Virus record (IMG/VR): IMGVR_UViG_3300038393_001218
Location: 1 to 44,271 of that record
Source of the DNA: a virus
Taxonomy: Duplodnaviria; Caudoviricetes
DNA: 44,271 bases
Reading direction: 5' to 3' (one strand)
Shown here: positions 5,510 through 43,453 of the stretch, piece after piece
How positions within the stretch are numbered: position 1 is the stretch's first letter
Layout of the letters: each line of letters opens with the position of its first letter
The notes under the pieces: model-generated
Database searches by the model: none
Seen by the model: the letters and a program-made list of their open reading frames with translations, nothing else
Told to the model about the DNA's origin: nothing
Made by a program: the position numbers and the translations under genes

Positions 5510-6047
5510 GCCTGTCACCTTGGCTGAGGCCAAGTCGCAGTGCCGGATGGATGACGACAACAGCCAGGACACCTTCATCACATCATTGATTGCGCCGGCC
5601 AGAGCCTATGTCGAGCGTTGCAGCCGCCTTCTGTTTGTCAGCGGCGCACGAACCGAGACGTTCACCCGCTGGGGCGATTATCTGGAGATCTGGCGCTATC
5701 CGGTAACGAGCGTCGATACGGTTACATATTCGACCACTGCCGACCCTGATGACGACGCTGATTACACCGGCTTCGTTGCAAACCTTGGCTTTCCGGTCAG
5801 GATCAGCCCAGCGGTAAGCGACAGTTTTCCGGACCTGATCACGGGTGGAACAGTCACCGTCACCTATACGGGTGGAGCGCTTGCGAGCACAGACGAAGCC
5901 TATCTGATCGGCAAGCGCGCGATGCTCATTCTGATCGGGCATTGGTTCGAATTCAGGGAAGCCGCGATGACTGGAATTGTCTCCAACGAGATCGCCTTTG
6001 CGGTCACGTCGCTGCTCGAAGATATCAGCCCGGTTTCGGCTTACTGA
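5502..6047 (+). CDS. Head-tail connector (HK97 gp6-like)
   Basis: EPVTLAEAKSQCR; AMLILIGHWFEFRE. Confidence 0.9.
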   Translation: MAEPVTLAEAKSQCRMDDDNSQDTFITSLIAPARAYVERCSRLLFVSGARTETFTRWGDYLEIWRYPVTSVDTVTYSTTADPDDDADYTGFVANLGFPVRISPAVSDSFPDLITGGTVTVTYTGGALASTDEAYLIGKRAMLILIGHWFEFREAAMTGIVSNEIAFAVTSLLEDISPVSAY

Positions 6048-6834: not shown

Positions 6835-7224
6835 ATGGATTGGCAGGGTGCGATGCTCGCGCGGCTTCGTGCCGCCGCGGGTGTGACGGCATTGGTAGGC
6901 GCGAAGACCTACTGGGAAAACGCGCCGCAAGGTGTCTCTCGGCCATACGTTACTTTACTCGATGTCACTCAACTGAGACCACAGACGCTCAAGGGCTGGG
7001 ATCTTGAGGCGGCGCGGGTCCAGATCGACGTTTGGACCGACACTTACGCTTCCAAGCAGGCGATCATGGAAGCCGTTCTCACGGCTGTGGTCCCTGGTGG
7101 CACATTTAACGGCAACACCTTTCAGCGGGCCGACATAGACTTAGGCCCGCGCGATATCCCCGAGCGGGACGGGGACACGATTATTTTCCGCAAATCAGCA
7201 GACCTGATCATCCACCACACTTAA
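6835..7224 (+). CDS. Tail terminator (DUF3168-like)
   Basis: RPYVTL, RVQIDVW; position before the tail tube gene. Confidence 0.8.
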   Translation: MDWQGAMLARLRAAAGVTALVGAKTYWENAPQGVSRPYVTLLDVTQLRPQTLKGWDLEAARVQIDVWTDTYASKQAIMEAVLTAVVPGGTFNGNTFQRADIDLGPRDIPERDGDTIIFRKSADLIIHHT

Positions 7225-7240
7225 AGGAAGGGCAAAGCCA

Positions 7241-7699
7241 ATGACCGAGGCCCGGATCGGCTGGGGCGGCGAGCTCCACGTGTCAACGGACAATACCGAA
7301 GCGAACCTTGTTGAGCTTGTCGAAGTCGTAGAATGCGGCTTTCCGAGCGACGAGACCGAGGAAGTTGAGGCCACGCACCTCAAGTCTCCCGGCCGGCGCA
7401 AGGAGTTTATTGCTGGCCTGATCGACGGCGGCGAGTTCACCGCCACGCTTAATTATGTGCCGGGAGCAGCTACCGACTTGCTGCTTACCGCAGCTAAGGA
7501 TGCGGGCACGATCCGCAAAATCCGCATCGTCATTCCCGACGATAGCGGAACCGGCGCGGCTGACTGGAACATCGTCACCAGCGCGTTCGTGAAGAAGTAT
7601 GCTCCCGATACCATGTCGGTGGGCAACAAGATCACGGCGACGGCGACGTTCCGCGTTACTGGCGCACAAGAGCAGGGAACTGGGTCGAGCGGTTCCTAA
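7241..7699 (+). CDS. Major tail (tube) protein
   Basis: EVEATHLKSPGRRKEFIAGLIDGGE; strong RBS. Confidence 0.9.
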   Translation: MTEARIGWGGELHVSTDNTEANLVELVEVVECGFPSDETEEVEATHLKSPGRRKEFIAGLIDGGEFTATLNYVPGAATDLLLTAAKDAGTIRKIRIVIPDDSGTGAADWNIVTSAFVKKYAPDTMSVGNKITATATFRVTGAQEQGTGSSGS

Positions 7700-25770: not shown

Positions 25771-25958
25771 ACGTCACCTTCGAGCTTGGCGAGGAGGGCG
25801 TCGAGGTCGTTGATGCTGTCAGCGATCCACGCGTCAGGATGCCCCTTGTAGAGATAGTCGCCGCGCTTCGTGCATTGATGCTCAGCTGCGTCCACGAGCC
25901 TTTGCCGGATCGTCCCAAGCACAATAGGCAGCGCTGCCCCTGCTTCTTGGTTTGTCAT
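25767..25958 (-). CDS. Hypothetical protein
   Basis: GGAG RBS; coupled overlaps. Confidence 0.5.
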   Translation of the reverse strand: MTNQEAGAALPIVLGTIRQRLVDAAEHQCTKRGDYLYKGHPDAWIADSINDLDALLAKLEGDV

Positions 25959-26413
25959 GCTGACAATTCTCCATGATAAAGCCGCACCAGATCTCCGACA
26001 CGGAATCCGCCAGAGTAGTCTCCGGGCACGTCGCAATAGATGCGGTAATCATCGCCAGCAGGCCGAACGGCTAAGTAGGTCCAGACTTTCTTGCTGCCTT
26101 CCCTTTCGTCCTGAGAGCCAGCCACACTGATACTTTCGATGACGACTGGTGCTCCGGTGCAAGCCTCTTTAGGATCCTTCAGCGGGGGATAGGTAACGCG
26201 CGGTGGGCGAGGCACGCTCAGATATTCCGTACGCACTATCCGCTTTGAAATGACATCGCGCTTCACCGGCACCATGTTTCCCATGACGGTTCCGATGTAG
26301 GAGCACCCCCACGCGCCAGTTCCTAGAAACGCGCTGAGAATGGCGGCCAAATATACCCGCTGCCTCACCGTGGCGTCTCGGAAAAGCGCCCGAAGTTCGC
26401 CGCCAATGGTCAC
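25955..26413 (-). CDS. Membrane-anchored hypothetical protein
   Basis: VYLAAILSAFLGTGAWGC TM segment; beta-rich C-terminus. Confidence 0.55.
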   Translation of the reverse strand: MTIGGELRALFRDATVRQRVYLAAILSAFLGTGAWGCSYIGTVMGNMVPVKRDVISKRIVRTEYLSVPRPPRVTYPPLKDPKEACTGAPVVIESISVAGSQDEREGSKKVWTYLAVRPAGDDYRIYCDVPGDYSGGFRVGDLVRLYHGELSA

Positions 26414-26431
26414 TCTGCTTCTCGATGTGGG

Positions 26432-26944
26432 TTAGGTGTGGTCATGATCGCCTCCTTGGGCGTCTCCCTTCGGGCTGCGTTGTTGTTCGCGCACGAGGCG
26501 ATACGCATGGGACCGGCTGATACCGTACTTCGCAGAAAGCTTGCGGCCACCTAAGCCGCGCTTCGCATCATCGCGAATCTGCGCCACTGTTCCGTCAGAC
26601 AACCGAATGCCGTTTGTGCGCGAAAACGTTCCGTGCATGATTTGATGCCTGGTGTTTTCGGAGCGCGTTACCCACGCCAGATTGTCGGGACAGTTGTTGC
26701 CCTTATCGCCATTAAGATGGGCGCACTCTAAACCCAGTGGACACGGGCCGTGAAATGCCTCGGCGACTAGCCGATGGACCTTCCGTTTAACGCACCGGCC
26801 GTTCACCGTCAGATTGACGTAGCGGTATCCGTAGCGGTCAATCGCCCCGTAGAGACGTTGCCCAGTGCGACAGTTGTGAATGTGCCCACCTTCGGACGCG
26901 GCGTAGCCGATGCACGAGGGGATGACGCGCCAACGCTTACTCAT
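26432..26944 (-). CDS. HNH homing endonuclease with C-terminal HTH, inserted in hairpin element C
   Basis: VHRLVAEAFHG..CAHLNGDKGNNCPDNLAWVTRSEN. Confidence 0.9.
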   Translation of the reverse strand: MSKRWRVIPSCIGYAASEGGHIHNCRTGQRLYGAIDRYGYRYVNLTVNGRCVKRKVHRLVAEAFHGPCPLGLECAHLNGDKGNNCPDNLAWVTRSENTRHQIMHGTFSRTNGIRLSDGTVAQIRDDAKRGLGGRKLSAKYGISRSHAYRLVREQQRSPKGDAQGGDHDHT

Positions 26945-27002
26945 TACTGCCAGCCTTCGGCCTCAGCCCCTTCGGGTCTTCGCGGAGTGGCATCCCTGAC
27001 GC
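26460..27002 (-). repeat. GAA-hairpin element copy C, split (5' half 27002-26947, 3' half 26478-26460)
   Basis: GCGTCAGGGAT...GCCGAAGGCTGGCAG / GCAGCCCGAAGGGAGACGC; closing stem GCGTC/GACGC. Confidence 0.7.
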
Positions 27003-27320
27003 GGAGAACGCGCCATCTGGTACGCCATTTCCAGTTAGCCAGAGCCAGCCCTTGCGGACCATGAAGGTGAGAGAGTGCTGCGAATGGGTGGTGACGGGCT
27101 TGCAGGCATCTGTGACCACATCAGGGCTTTGCTTTGCGAGAACCGCGAACGAAAAACACTGCATCGTGTCAGCGCCGAGATCGTAGCCGCTATTCACGCC
27201 ACACGTGAAAGCCGCGATAGCGATACCCACCGACAGGCCGAGACAACGAAGATTGGCTCGGTGCGAAGCACGACCAGCGCGGGCCTGAAAGGCATCGCCA
27301 GAACTATGTCGGTTAGGCAT
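26937..27320 (-). CDS. Hypothetical protein whose ends are encoded by inverted hairpin elements A and C
   Basis: Coupled overlaps on both sides; unique core at 27003-27213. Confidence 0.5.
   Translation of the reverse strand: MPNRHSSGDAFQARAGRASHRANLRCLGLSVGIAIAAFTCGVNSGYDLGADTMQCFSFAVLAKQSPDVVTDACKPVTTHSQHSLTFMVRKGWLWLTGNGVPDGAFSASGMPLREDPKGLRPKAGSNE
27214..27298 (+). repeat. GAA-hairpin element copy A
   Basis: GCGAT AGCGAT..GCCGAGAC..GGCTCGG TGCGAAGCA..AGCGCGG GCCTGAAAGGC ATCGC. Confidence 0.8.
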
Positions 27321-27645
27321 TGTCGGACCCTTTCTGGGTGGTGGCCTGGGAAGCCACGCACCCTAAATGCTCGCGTAGGAAGTGGACCGCCGTTTGCTCT
27401 GGAATCCATCCTTCGTAATCGCCGCGATGCCCGAACGGCCAAAATCCTTCATCTCGGAAGAACTCGACCAGCGGGCCAATCTCATTCAGCTTCTCGCGCA
27501 GCTTGGCATTGGCGGCCGACAAGTCGCGCACTTGACGCTCGGCCTTTTCCGCTCGGTTCGTTTGCTCGCTAAGCGCCGCAACAACATCGCGGACGTATTT
27601 CACGCGCTCCGGATCGAATAAGCGCCCAGAATCAGTCATCATCAT
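27313..27645 (-). CDS. Hypothetical coiled-coil protein
   Basis: First gene left of attP; AGGGG upstream; start at one of three tandem ATGs. Confidence 0.55.
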   Translation of the reverse strand: MMMTDSGRLFDPERVKYVRDVVAALSEQTNRAEKAERQVRDLSAANAKLREKLNEIGPLVEFFRDEGFWPFGHRGDYEGWIPEQTAVHFLREHLGCVASQATTQKGSDNA

Positions 27646-27794
27646 TCCCCTGATGTGATGGGAGTAGTGCACAGGGGCCGAAAGTTCGCTGTGAACCTTC
27701 TACCGCGAACCAAGCGCGAACATGGCGCATCAGAATGCAGAGCGGCCCTAGGGAAAGCGCCCACAAAACAACGCGTACCGCTAGGAGCAACGCG

Positions 27795-27839
27795 TTCGGG
27801 AGGCAGGGGCCGGAGGTTCGAATCCTCTCTCCCCGACCA
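27795..27839 (+). other. attP core: 3' half of tRNA-Pro(CGG), from anticodon loop to CCA
   Basis: TTCGGGAGGCAGGGGCCGGAGGTTCGAATCCTCTCTCCCCGACCA contains a T-arm and CCA but has no 5' half; lies just downstream of the int region. Confidence 0.85.
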
Positions 27840-27903
27840 AGCATTTCCGCCATTTCCACGTGAAACAGCGCAGGGGCCGAAGGTTCGTTTGAACCTCTGG
27901 CGG

Positions 27904-28221
27904 TCATTTTGAAGGCTCGGAAGGTTCTTCGGAGCGGACAAGATCGACCGCAGCTTGGTGGCCGGCGACCGCCTCATCCCAAGTGGAATAGCGCCACATG
28001 TCTTGATCGTACGCGCCGCCGGAAATCAGCGTCTCAAAGATGAGTGGAGGGCCTTCGCCGTATTGGTGGTCGAGGCCGAGAAACACGGTGGAAATCCACA
28101 CGTCGCCGATCTGGTCGCGAGCTACACGGCGCTTTTCCATGTCGTTGAACGCAGTTGCCCACTCCATAAGCTCTGCGGGCCTAACTGTGTGGTCGTCGTT
28201 CAGCACATAATGTTCGCTCAT
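27904..28221 (-). CDS. Conserved phage hypothetical protein
   Basis: ISTVFLGLDH..PPLIFETLI..RYSTWDEAVAGH. Confidence 0.7.
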   Translation of the reverse strand: MSEHYVLNDDHTVRPAELMEWATAFNDMEKRRVARDQIGDVWISTVFLGLDHQYGEGPPLIFETLISGGAYDQDMWRYSTWDEAVAGHQAAVDLVRSEEPSEPSK

Positions 28222-29201
28222 TTTCCCCTCCGTACCGCTTCGGACACGCGCCGCAGATGTCCCGGCGAGAAGCGAGCATAGTGCTTTTCCGTAGTGGCGC
28301 TGTCGTCATGGCCCATGAACTGCGCTAACTCGGCCATGCTCACCCCAGCCTCAGCAGCCCATACCGCGCCAGTGTGGCGGAGCGTATAAGGCGTGACGTG
28401 GATTCCCGACCGAGCAGAGGCAGCCTGGAACGCCTTCTTGATCGACTTGACCTGCTGCGCCCCCCTCTCCACCACAAATTGGCTCTGGCGGCCCGTATAA
28501 GCCGTTCTCAGCGCCGCCAAGGCTTCGTCGTTGAGCGGGACCACAGGACGCCTCTTGCGCGTCTGGCGGCGTCCTACGGGGTTCAGATCGACAGTTCCCC
28601 TTTCGAAGTCCACCCGGTTCCATGTCAGCTCAAGAATTGCAGTCGGTCGGGCCATCGTCGCCAAGCCCAATTCGACATAGAGCCGGGCATGGGGAGCCTT
28701 TACCTCCCTGAACCATCGCTCGAACTCGGAACGTGTTAAATGTCGCACCTTGCGCTCTGGCGGTTCCGGCCTCCAGATGTTCGGCGCCTTGCGGATTAGG
28801 TCTCGCTCAAGAGCCCATCTGAGGGCAACCGACAGCATCCCCAGTTCATAGCGGATCGTCGCATCCGCCATTTCCCGCCTTTTAGCGTAGGACTGCGCCA
28901 TCTCCCGATCGATTAGATGCGGCTCGACGTTCTCCCAGAACGGGCGCATGGCTTTCCACGCGTCTTTCTGGCGAGCGGTCGAGGCTATGCCTTCAGCCTC
29001 GCGGTCGGCGATGTAGGCGCTCACGATCTTGCCCACGGTCCATGATGAACGGTCGTGTCCGGCCTTCCACCCGCGCCTAGCCTCCGCTTCAGCCCCAGGA
29101 CGGTCGGTTGCCTGAAGCCGCTCTCGGTGTCGTCGTCCTCCAGCGTCTCGATAGACGATGGCGTAACCGCTTCTGAACCGCTGGACCGTATATTCTGGCA
29201 C
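28218..29201 (-). CDS. int: Tyrosine integrase
   Basis: TMARPTAILEL (R), K, TPYTLRHT, MGH, catalytic Y in KHYARF. Confidence 0.95.
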   Translation of the reverse strand: MPEYTVQRFRSGYAIVYRDAGGRRHRERLQATDRPGAEAEARRGWKAGHDRSSWTVGKIVSAYIADREAEGIASTARQKDAWKAMRPFWENVEPHLIDREMAQSYAKRREMADATIRYELGMLSVALRWALERDLIRKAPNIWRPEPPERKVRHLTRSEFERWFREVKAPHARLYVELGLATMARPTAILELTWNRVDFERGTVDLNPVGRRQTRKRRPVVPLNDEALAALRTAYTGRQSQFVVERGAQQVKSIKKAFQAASARSGIHVTPYTLRHTGAVWAAEAGVSMAELAQFMGHDDSATTEKHYARFSPGHLRRVSEAVRRGK

Positions 29202-29353
29202 TCGAATCTCGCGACCTCTTCAGCCGGTATCCGTATGAGTGTGCCAAGCCGGAAGCAACCGAGCTCGCCGTCACGGATCAGCTTGCGGATTACCCCTTCG
29301 GAGCATTCCCAAGCATCTGCCAATGAGGCAACCGTGAAGGCGCGAGCACTCAC
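29021..29353 (-). CDS. xis: Excisionase-like HTH protein
   Basis: FTVASLADAWECSEGVIRKLIRDGELGCFRLGTLIRIP; overlaps the start of int. Confidence 0.75.
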   Translation of the reverse strand: MSARAFTVASLADAWECSEGVIRKLIRDGELGCFRLGTLIRIPAEEVARFECQNIRSSGSEAVTPSSIETLEDDDTESGFRQPTVLGLKRRLGAGGRPDTTVHHGPWARS

Positions 29354-29517
29354 CGCCACAAGTTCCTCTTCACCCGATCCGGAAGATAGACTGGCGCTCT
29401 CCTGTCACCGGATATGTGGACAGCTGACCAATCGCGCTTCTCGATGTCGGCACGGTTCAGCGCAGCAATGTCGAGCGGCTGTTCATTGACAATGCGGAGG
29501 GATGGTTTGGCGGTCAT
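29350..29517 (-). CDS. Hypothetical 55-aa protein (not in ORF track)
   Basis: ATGA and GTGA coupling on the two sides. Confidence 0.5.
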   Translation of the reverse strand: MTAKPSLRIVNEQPLDIAALNRADIEKRDWSAVHISGDRRAPVYLPDRVKRNLWR

Positions 29518-29723
29518 GCTGCGATCCTAGGCGGTGCCGGCCACAGTTGCTCTCCGGAAACAGTCTCTATCCGTATCGTTCCGGGGTTGAGGCGTGCGTG
29601 TTCCGCCAGATCATCGTCTGCTGGCAGGTCGATAATGTAAAAGCCCTCTGCTCGCCTGAACACGCGAGGAACCCAATGATGGCGCGGCGGGAGCGGCTTC
29701 CCGTTGGCGTAGCTGTCGCTCAT
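29514..29723 (-). CDS. Hypothetical protein
   Basis: Strong AAGGAGG RBS. Confidence 0.6.
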   Translation of the reverse strand: MSDSYANGKPLPPRHHWVPRVFRRAEGFYIIDLPADDDLAEHARLNPGTIRIETVSGEQLWPAPPRIAA

Positions 29724-29754
29724 CTCACCCCCTCCTTATCGTTTCTGTGGTGTG

Positions 29755-30096
29755 TCACCGGAGGTTCATCTTCGCGCGCTCGGTGGCGTTCGCGGTTCTC
29801 CAGGCATCGAACCGCATCCGCTTGGCTTCCGCCTGGGCCTTCAGCGCCTCCGCATCGTAAGCGGCCAGTTCCCAATCGACACAGGCGGCTTCGTAAACAG
29901 GATCGGCCTCGGCCATCTGTTCACTGGTCCCGACCGCGTTCCCGTCGCCCTTGTATTTGACGAACAGGGTGGCGCGGACGCGCTTGCGGCGCAGATCGGC
30001 GGCTTCCGCGGCGACCTTGGCTTTGCCAGCGCGGACGAACAGTTCCTCGGCTTCGTTGATCGCCTGGTCGATCCCGTGATGCACCATCGCGTTCAT
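29755..30096 (-). CDS. Helical protein of the recombination module
   Basis: AEADPVY...DAWRTANATERA; GGAGG RBS. Confidence 0.65.
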   Translation of the reverse strand: MNAMVHHGIDQAINEAEELFVRAGKAKVAAEAADLRRKRVRATLFVKYKGDGNAVGTSEQMAEADPVYEAACVDWELAAYDAEALKAQAEAKRMRFDAWRTANATERAKMNLR

Positions 30097-30437
30097 GCGT
30101 CCACCCTCCGATATGTGTCGGCAAAGGCCATCGCCTCCGCGAGCAGGTCGATCCCGTACTTTTCAAAGAAGCCCTGATGGCTCAACCCCTCAACGCTGAT
30201 CGGATCGCTCGCCTTTGGATCGAACACCTTCTGATGGTGTGGTGGGCATAGCGGGACAACCAGCCAGTCATCTTTGGAGAAGCGGCCTGGCTTGTCAGCA
30301 TAGCCGGTCACATGGTGGACGGTCGGAGCCGCGCCGCAGACGAGGCAGACGTTCTCCTTGGCGATCCATTCGTGATAGTCTCGTGCCGACACTGGCTTAT
30401 ATCTCCGTTTGGCTTTGAGGGCTGTTCGACGCATCAA
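30093..30437 (-). CDS. Ref/DUF968-like HNH-fold nuclease
   Basis: CLVCG..TVHH..VVPLCPPHH..F.EKYG. Confidence 0.7.
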   Translation of the reverse strand: MMRRTALKAKRRYKPVSARDYHEWIAKENVCLVCGAAPTVHHVTGYADKPGRFSKDDWLVVPLCPPHHQKVFDPKASDPISVEGLSHQGFFEKYGIDLLAEAMAFADTYRRVDA

Positions 30438-30697
30438 AACGGAACGAAATCATCGTCCAGCCCGGACATGTGATCCGAGTTTGTTGAGATCACCGGGCGC
30501 TCAGCACCGCGCGCCTCCTTCGGTTTGAACGACAGCGAGATCCACTTCTCGCCGTTGGGGCGTATCTTTGTCCAACCAGACGCCCAATATTCGACGCCGC
30601 CGATCATCACTGTTCCAGTGAGATTGGGATGCGTTTCCTTCTCGCGCTTGTCGTTCTTGAAGAGCGATCCGCTAAGGTCGCGTTGCTCGTAAGCCAT
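30434..30697 (-). CDS. Single-stranded DNA-binding protein
   Basis: GSLFKNDK..HPNLTG..YWASGW; acidic DDDFVPF tail. Confidence 0.75.
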   Translation of the reverse strand: MAYEQRDLSGSLFKNDKREKETHPNLTGTVMIGGVEYWASGWTKIRPNGEKWISLSFKPKEARGAERPVISTNSDHMSGLDDDFVPF

Positions 30698-31437
30698 CAA
30701 CGTGTCTCCAATTCTGCGATTTGTTTCAGGCCGCGCCTCGTGTCGCGAACCTCGATCTCCAATGGCACAAAGTCGGGCGGCGTATTCGGCCCATCCGACC
30801 ACCAATCGGGCAAGTCGCGTTTAAGCTGATCCACGAAAGCCTTAACCTCTTCGTCCTTGGCCCACTCGTCGAACTCCTCTAGGCTGCCCATGCCGCGCAG
30901 TGTGCGGGCGAACTCCCTTGCAGCCTTCTCCAGCTTGGGCAGGGTGTCGTAGGGGCCGTCTAGCTTGGCGCTCTTCCTGGGCGGCGCCTCACCCGTTGTA
31001 GGGCGGTCGTTTGCAGCCCTCGAAGCAGCGTTGCCGTCATCGTCCTCAGTCGGCACACCAAAGGCCGTTACGAGGGCATAGCGGCGGGCATAGGTAAGCG
31101 CTGAGCCGAAGCCTTGCGCGTCACGCTTGTTCGCCGGCACATAGAGCTTGCCGAAGTCGATCTGGCCGCCGCTGATGTGGCGGACATAGGTTGAGACGAT
31201 AACGCCATCCTCGCTCGGCTCGCTGCACTGGATGAAGTAGAGGTTGTGCGCGGCGAGGATCGGGCGCAGTGCTTCGATCACACTACCCAGGTCCGCGTAC
31301 TTGGACTTGAAGTGCGGGTTGATCTTGTCCTTGGTGACGGCCTCAATCTCTGCGAATGCCGCTGCCATTGCCACGTCGATAGAGCCGCGTTCGTTTAGCT
31401 CATCTTCAACCGTGCGTAGTTTTGCCTGACTAGCCAT
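30697..31437 (-). CDS. erf: ERF-family single-strand annealing protein
   Basis: NPHFKSKYADL; QGFGSALTYARRYAL; EDDDGN. Confidence 0.95.
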   Translation of the reverse strand: MASQAKLRTVEDELNERGSIDVAMAAAFAEIEAVTKDKINPHFKSKYADLGSVIEALRPILAAHNLYFIQCSEPSEDGVIVSTYVRHISGGQIDFGKLYVPANKRDAQGFGSALTYARRYALVTAFGVPTEDDDGNAASRAANDRPTTGEAPPRKSAKLDGPYDTLPKLEKAAREFARTLRGMGSLEEFDEWAKDEEVKAFVDQLKRDLPDWWSDGPNTPPDFVPLEIEVRDTRRGLKQIAELETR

Positions 31438-31621
31438 TTCTAGGCTCCTGTTCTTGCGAAAGGGATGGCGCGCGAAGCGCCGAGACCGAAGGGCTCGGGT
31501 CCCTCTCAGGACCGCCAAGCCCGGTGCCGAAGGCATTCGCCCAGAGACGATCACAGACGTCCCCGATATCGTGACCACGAATGCTCTCATTTGCTTTGGT
31601 GATGGTGGAGCGGAGGGTCAT
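31430..31621 (-). CDS. Short ORF spanning element B
   Basis: GGAGG RBS and coupled overlaps; much of it is element sequence. Confidence 0.4.
   Translation of the reverse strand: MTLRSTITKANESIRGHDIGDVCDRLWANAFGTGLGGPERDPSPSVSALRAPSLSQEQEPRNG
31456..31540 (+). repeat. GAA-hairpin element copy B
   Basis: GCGAA AGGGAT GGCGCGCGAAGC GCCGAGAC CGAAG GGCTCGG..AGCCCGG TGCCGAAGGCA TTCGC. Confidence 0.8.
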
Positions 31622-43405: not shown

Positions 43406-43453
43406 GGACAAGCCACGCCGTGAGGCGTCGCGTCCCAGCGCCCCTTCGGGGGC
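43406..43453 (+). promoter_or_regulatory. Two tetraloop hairpins ahead of the capsid RBS
   Basis: ACGCC-GTGA-GGCGT (GNRA) within GGAC/GTCC; GCCCC-TTCG-GGGGC (UUCG). Confidence 0.6.

Follow-up and report, generated by a model that had tools for sequence, protein, structure and literature searches.

What is a branched, hairpin-rich element of about 85 bases doing, three times over, in a tailed phage? The question is raised by a 44,271-nt virus record (IMGVR_UViG_3300038393_001218; "the window" denotes this whole stretch of DNA), which carries terminase, portal, integrase, ERF, single-strand binding protein (SSB) and RusA genes together with several HNH genes, and which is a temperate-type tailed phage. 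An initial annotation, made from the letters alone, described three copies, one of them split, and took them for a folded single-stranded DNA (ssDNA) element. All three lie within the leftward-read accessory arm and were recovered where that annotation had placed them, with the stems assigned there: copy A at 27214-27298 on the plus strand (27214..27300 with the unpaired CC that follows its closing stem), copy B at 31456-31540, also plus (31456..31542 with CC), and copy C on the minus strand in two parts, of which 26947..27002 runs from the 5' arm of the closing stem through the AG of the second stem, and 26458..26474 holds the last GAA hairpin, the 3' arm of the closing stem and CC. A regular expression for the core, run over the 44 kb, finds the A, B and C places only, as does a covariance model, R1, whose training set included A and B and excluded C (E=3.7e-4 for C). 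Hairpins of the C-GNA-G type are concentrated here, 6 of the window's 25 falling inside the three copies.

Folded singly as DNA, the copies do little better than shuffled sequences (z -0.9 for A, -1.8 for B), and folding single copies as DNA versus RNA separates the strands poorly; the evidence for the fold is therefore covariation across homologues. The search of phage databases that the initial annotation proposed turned up a large covarying family. A pattern derived from B and C gave 122 loci in the 27 of 64 parts of IMG/VR that were scanned (about 290 estimated overall), and from these loci and the window 71 distinct full-length copies were parsed, at least one of which (L040) is a chance match. 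R1, built from 63 sequences, has 123 matches in 75 sources. Across 104 distinct rows, 98.0% of cells pair and 11 of 14 pairs change on both sides, a level reached by 0 of 500 shuffles and compared with 26-50% in slid controls, figures to be read with an alignment fitted to the structure and with some bases fixed by the search patterns.

The element is a covarying DNA-type fold. Its closing stem, GCGNN/NNCGC, covaries across homologues, as had been claimed from the three copies, and is followed by an unpaired CC at the 3' foot, after which the next base is variable (A/G/T/C). Inside the closing stem come an A and a stem of the form GGG-A.G-T/A with a variable extension; a four-way junction then holds, in order, one hairpin, a single G, the stem CSRAG-A.G-C and a second hairpin; the final hairpin comes before the closing stem. 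The whole comprises a four-way and a three-way junction, GNA-capped arms, and two stems, both with a fixed A.G mismatch. Only 3 of 110 copies have a G at position -1 that could pair with the 3' CC; avoidance of G 5' of the closing stem suggests that the CC is kept free, at the point where a primer would start.

Is the fold one of DNA or of RNA? C-GNA-G mini-hairpins are unusually stable in DNA, d(GCGAAGC) exceptionally so, and among 293 three-base loops 188 are GNA, with the reverse form in 4. A regulatory or catalytic RNA structure could account for copies that are sense to the genes of ssDNA phages, for a G-T/G-U pair at one stem position in 16 of 97 parsed copies, and for the 31 GNRA-type loops among 200 four-base loops. 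UUCG is absent from those 200, however, GNA triloops dominate, in every plasmid case the element runs antisense to the leading genes beside it, and tailed phages carry it in both orientations. As to Rfam, to which the initial annotation had also pointed, the element matches no family: there was no match in the window, only an attI leader in three further records, and, at E<=5 in eight homologous loci, a single chance miRNA hit off the element. An RNA role is thus highly improbable; the GNA loops, the lack of UUCG and a strand pattern that includes both senses uphold the original view, which took the element for folded ssDNA and not for a cis-acting mRNA structure. Among the holders listed for the region there was no RNA.

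The family is spread over plasmids and three phage groups (microviruses, inoviruses and tailed phages). A pattern scan of GTDB gave an estimated 2,600 or so stretches, and R1 confirmed 59 of the 80 loci listed; the hosts are mostly Alphaproteobacteria, with some Beta- and Gammaproteobacteria, Nitrospira, Fibrobacter and Acidobacteria. In four alphaproteobacterial loci (L229, L248, L283, L216) copies adjoin ATP-dependent ligase or Ku genes. The copy on plasmid F is covered at >=80% in 3,736 of 72,556 PLSDB plasmids. R1 has no hit in phiX174, G4, M13, Pf3, Pf1, ColE1 or R6K, nor in the parts covered of ColIb-P9 (10-60 kb) and R751 (1-50 kb), in the RepFIA region of F or in F 30-58 kb, and blastn searches with the window copies against named phages produced nothing beyond chance hits. 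No published description was found, full-text searches for six core 13-15-mers included, within a literature of which several older primary papers were beyond reach.

What these very different carriers share is the strand. Wherever the strand could be told, the element lies on the one that becomes single-stranded. In microviruses with a recognised capsid gene it is carried by the coding strand (7/7; three close relatives). An inovirus-type pattern found 117 loci, and for the 80 listed the coding strand carries the element in 45/45 Pf-like loci; of the 35 others, 27 were sent to Pfam, 21 of these have Rep_trans or Zot, and the coding strand carries the element in 21/21. In the microvirus and inovirus families the coding strand is the packaged strand. 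On plasmids the element lies on the template strand of leading-region genes, which is the transferred strand (T-strand) according to the accessible text of PMC11541004; this holds for 17/17 copies (F 2, R100 2, R46 3, R388 2, pTer331 2, an IncN-like plasmid 4 and an IncF-like region 2), and the strand rule holds in 5/5 genome loci beside ardC. A strict sense-strand bias, named at the outset as a sign of RNA, is not seen, the plasmid copies being antisense to the leading genes. With the element sense in ssDNA phages and antisense in plasmids, only the single-stranded DNA form unifies the cases.

Within the ssDNA phages the element takes the slot of the complementary-strand origin. In microvirus KT264808 the element fills the gap behind the capsid gene, the slot of the annotated complementary-strand origin of G4. 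In Pf1 an unrelated AT-rich segment of similar length occupies the element's slot between flanks otherwise near-identical to those of Pf prophages, as expected of interchangeable origins. The Pf1 segment itself (L332, ~7080-7270; DNA fold z -0.5) is a candidate alternative minus-strand origin. In a microvirus (L155, 2600-2716) about 100 extra nucleotides with a small open reading frame (ORF) stand directly 5' of the element and are absent from the close relatives L194 and L167.

The reading that we consider probable is that the element is a host-read signal for priming the complementary strand when ssDNA phages and conjugative plasmids are single-stranded. The fold would survive on SSB-coated ssDNA; a host enzyme would bind it and start a primer at the unpaired CC (pppGGGCG...), reading into the stem. 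That the reader is a host factor is suggested by the presence of the family in microviruses that lack Int, RusA and HNH genes, and no link was found between the element and the phage's own Int, RusA or HNH. The preferred enzyme, as a part of this reading that falls short of an even chance, is RNA polymerase, working in the absence of -10/-35 boxes as it does at the M13 minus-strand origin. Presence of the element on F, R100, R46 and R388 versus its absence from the parts covered of R751 and ColIb-P9, both of which encode their own primase, was counted in favor of priming. Of the three roles that the initial annotation had offered, a priming signal is the best supported; a cassette role is supported in the tailed phages; a miniature mobile element would give empty sites, and none was seen among contigs that show presence only.

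Among the known signals nearest to the element is the M13 minus-strand origin: it lies on the virion strand, lacks promoter boxes, and has a GNA-capped hairpin with a closing end ATCGCCC followed by single strand. The hairpin (M13 5706-5736) ends in ATCGCCC, has a C-GTA-G loop, and has GGTTCACG and GGCCATCGCCC in common with one element subtype. The M13 primer begins AGGGCG. In a post hoc count, GTTCACG followed by CGCCC within 20 nt arose in 4 of 2,000 M13 shuffles. RNA polymerase reads this origin without promoter boxes and makes an 18-nt primer, according to the accessible parts of PMC7430646; the origin is also treated in PMC7948647, likewise available in part.

The second comparison is with Frpo/ssiD of F (accessible parts of PMC9849209, PMC11541004 and PMC7690428), which shares with the element a T-strand location in the leading region, upstream of both ssb and the operon nearest oriT. 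The duplicated Frpo1/Frpo2 unit includes both F copies, at its edge. The element differs from the tested signals: it stands ~95 nt beyond the 3' end of the 351-nt ssiD fragment that was tested, has no overlap with ssiE, and is an 85-nt branched structure without the -10/-35 boxes of Frpo. By eye, no TATAAT-like word is seen in the G+C-rich alignment, no promoter scan having been run. The ssi1-3 sites of ColIb-P9 are Frpo homologues, and the element was not found in ColIb-P9 10-60 kb. In Supplementary Table 2 of PMC11541004, candidates Frpo* 2 and 6 contain the element, which is unremarked in the part of that paper available. Candidates Frpo* 4 and 5 of the same table carry another structured sequence in the element's slot, one not found in element loci, which is possibly a second interchangeable module. 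The IncN CUP repeats and the long direct repeats of IncW R388 also place copies ahead of leading operons (three divergent copies in R46, two identical ones in R388 and four in the IncN-like plasmid). The accessible texts describe CUPs as promoter and ArdK-binding regions and as recombination substrates, with no ssDNA fold mentioned there (PMC5371602, PMC3490853); the element, unlike the CUP, is a sub-module that is found in phages too. In sum, the element would work like single-strand initiation (ssi) and single-strand origin (sso) sites yet was placed in none of the characterised types tested. Published mutants of Pf4 PA0719 change the start codon only, so that their normal replication is no test of the element (PMC12328805, accessible part).

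Several observations weigh against priming as described. The resemblance to M13 is post hoc and incomplete: the M13 origin is a single unbranched stem without an R1 hit, its 3' CC is paired where that of the element is unpaired, and GGCCATCG occurs in only 4 of 97 copies. When a profile built from the ten bases that end the element is run over the M13 plus strand, the M13 site does come top, yet its 9.6 bits do not rise above the best-scoring sites of four other phage genomes (9.6-12.2 bits). Many close relatives are among the copies counted for strand. R6K is without the element although it is without a primase, and pTer331 has it though PromA plasmids encode one. Priming alone leaves unexplained the sharp 5'-edge junctions of single copies and the several copies kept in double-stranded DNA phages. 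On F, the tested ssiD/Frpo fragment works without the element, ending ~95 nt before it. Finally, conversion of F is not blocked by rifampicin (bioRxiv 10.64898/2026.01.09.698686, accessible part), which limits any role of RNA polymerase.

The same result bears on the identity of the reader, because the priming role could instead be served by a DnaG primase site of the G4 type or a PriA/helicase loading site of the phiX174 primosome assembly site (pas) type, a variant of the priming reading that we regard as somewhat unlikely. A loaded helicase would travel 5' to 3' along the entering T-strand, and pairs of copies placed back to back would give diverging forks. F conversion that is rifampicin-resistant and looks discontinuous in the available part of that preprint fits such a site, as do the leading-region, T-strand position, the G4-origin-like build of several hairpins, and an excess of back-to-back neighbors. 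The phiX174 pas and the G4 origin likewise lie behind the capsid gene, on the virion strand, with several hairpins and GAA-type loops. They differ in that neither matches the element in sequence or by model: R1 has no hit in phiX174, G4, ColE1, the RepFIA region of F or F 30-58 kb. A G4-type primase site has 5'-CTG-3' at the 3' foot of its first hairpin, and no CTG is conserved at the 3' foot of the element, which reads CGC-CC-(A/G/T/C). The back-to-back pairs, moreover, flank unrelated coding DNA of ordinary G+C, with no origin-like spacer.

A further possibility, and quite an unlikely one, is that nothing is primed and that the element protects ssDNA, either as a stable fold that halts exonucleases or as a junction mimic that binds host proteins. 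The strand rule would suit such a device, GNA mini-hairpins resist nucleases, and the junctions at both edges described below fit resection stops. The neighbors of the element are establishment genes such as ardC, ssb, psiB and parB, as protection would have it. A circular virion genome, however, is without ends in need of protection; stability would require less than the fixed sequences (two G-A-Y/R-G-C stems and CGCCC); and the Pf1 slot swap better fits alternative origins than protection. Priming by a host enzyme remains the reading that we prefer.

How does such an element come to be repeated in tailed phages? In loci with multiple hits, neighbors less than 800 nt apart are back to back in 29 cases, face to face in 7 and direct in 3. 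From one locus to the next, back-to-back copies enclose DNA that is unrelated, coding and of ordinary G+C, and usually a single ORF starts just outside one copy and runs through the cargo into the far copy. Cargo exchange between inverted pairs is observed: loci L161 and L143 have common outer flanks around different cargo, and IMG/VR locus L650 has the same flanks as the window, different cargo and an intact C. In the window, the exchangeable cargo between back-to-back C and A (27003..27213) is replaced in L650 by an unrelated cargo of 384 nt. The ORF that crosses it, a frame of 127 aa without a PHROG match on the minus strand at 26937..27320, has its start 20 nt outside A and runs antisense through A, then through the cargo and sense through C; its start and its C-derived peptide are the same in L650. 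These orientations, together with B on the ERF template strand, agree with the original description of A as antisense and C as sense to local genes. Translation of sense copies gives a recurrent C-terminal peptide of the AQAIEARRAET..GSVHESAV type (L154, L141, L159, L161 and others), which is likely a source of false protein similarity.

As the initial annotation had suggested they might, mosaic boundaries of related phages map to the element, and specifically to its 5' edge. Unrelated DNA starts 0-4 nt from the 5' G in L161/L143, L153/L182/L201, L092/L193, L147/L181 and window/L650, and likewise in microvirus L155 versus L194/L167. When the flanks of 110 copies were compared, 13 pairs had the 3' flank alone in common (about 3 of them alignment shifts or weak), 4 the 5' flank alone and 7 both. 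A ribosome site with a start codon is found in the 3' flank of 70 of the 110 copies versus the 5' flank of 21. These are the observations that would favor a structure-recognised breakage and joining site (attC-like, HUH-like or the end of a tiny mobile unit), cut at its 5' edge and joined to foreign DNA, with inverted pairs as a gene-capture platform that supplies the start codon and yields in-frame fusions such as the single ORFs that usually run through both copies. We hold this to be unlikely. Homologous recombination in 80-nt repeats gives the same pattern, and the syntenic A-like copy of L650, in which the fold is kept while the outer half is shared with A and the inner half differs, is such a hybrid. 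Plasmid repeats break at the 3' edge instead, no recombinase common to the element's neighborhoods was found among the ORFs scanned, and the single virion-strand copy of microviruses is unexplained by joining. Four runs showed no empty site at B, and L650 showed none at A/C (contigs show presence only); no target duplication was seen by eye. Integron attC sites, also folded ssDNA with covarying stems tied to exchangeable coding DNA, form direct arrays rather than inverted pairs and differ in lacking the branched fold and in having a GTTRRRY core; membership in attC was rejected on the 29:7:3 arrangement and on the lack of an IntI neighbor among the ORFs scanned.

Under the priming reading, back-to-back copies in tailed phages would re-prime both strands over a small accessory gene when the region is single-stranded, and the ~80 nt of homology between copies would let ERF-type recombination swap the enclosed cargo. 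Recombination in 80-nt repeats explains swaps between existing pairs, not the first capture of cargo. The ERF-like ssDNA annealing protein of the window (30697..31437, minus strand; phrog_155, E 6e-38) is a candidate agent of the exchange, and its gene adjoins B: copy B is solitary, on the ERF template strand, 18 nt before the ERF ATG (31437) with a ribosome site in between. Sphingopyxis phage VSN-002 has a copy placed as B is, and B has homologues in L011 and L028. There is no switch of GC skew at the A/C pair.

Why is copy C split? In the second pairing, given initially as GGG/CCC in B and C, the partner chosen in C was wrong, since in the intact L650 allele that CCC forms the 5' side of the last hairpin. 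There, the first 60 nt of C are identical and are followed by six bases that complete the second stem. The true partner strand in C (6 nt) was lost to a 472-nt insertion (26475..26946, minus strand) that carries most of an HNH endonuclease gene (ORF 26432-26944, minus strand; phrog_59). Contigs in two of four soil or rhizosphere runs (X1, X5) join 26474 to 26947 through the six bases of L650, joints that may come from related phages; with L650, they indicate that a part of the core gave way to the HNH gene. What is left of C is dead or else refolds with the help of the CCC of its last hairpin. An HNH gene housed in a loop, as in a group I intron with its core intact, was rejected, for the insertion replaces the 3' strand of a core stem. 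Two distant HNH relatives are without the element, a loose pattern for other HNH-bearing copies (121 loci, 8 regular-expression matches) gave no element, and the 13 C-subtype copies (of 14 rows, one is not an element) are all free of insertions.

Other features of the window stand apart from the family. Gene-start stretches on the minus strand at 25778-25800, 25920-25954, 26415-26445, 27307-27344 and 27622-27660 recur in L650, and soil contigs link them to one another (e.g., 25800 to 26413 and 27340 to 27622), as gene-boundary linkers for module shuffling. ARAGORN called no tRNA; a tRNA-Pro-like 3' half ending in a T-arm lies behind the integrase (27775-27850, minus strand), has very high read depth from other organisms, and is probably the attP core. 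A lone CCCC-GAA-GGGG hairpin behind the head protease gene (43444-43452, minus strand) is outside the family.

The widest claim that the data invite is that one folded-DNA signal serves plasmids of the F-like, IncN, IncW and PromA groups, inoviruses with Pf among them, microviruses and tailed phages alike as the complementary-strand start site hitherto missing, which a host enzyme would recognise by its shape and its two A.G stems, and that the inverted pairs of tailed phages are an integrase-free form of gene capture by 5'-edge joining and in-frame fusion; we consider this possible, if doubtful. What the family does offer is a concrete 85-nt candidate, present twice on F, for priming of the entering plasmid strand without RNA polymerase-dependent Frpo activity, and the same candidate for the second-strand start in gokushoviruses and Pf phages. 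It accounts, too, for the spurious peptide that keeps appearing at the ends of phage "hypothetical proteins", and it points to a repeat-bounded route for the exchange of accessory genes in temperate phages.

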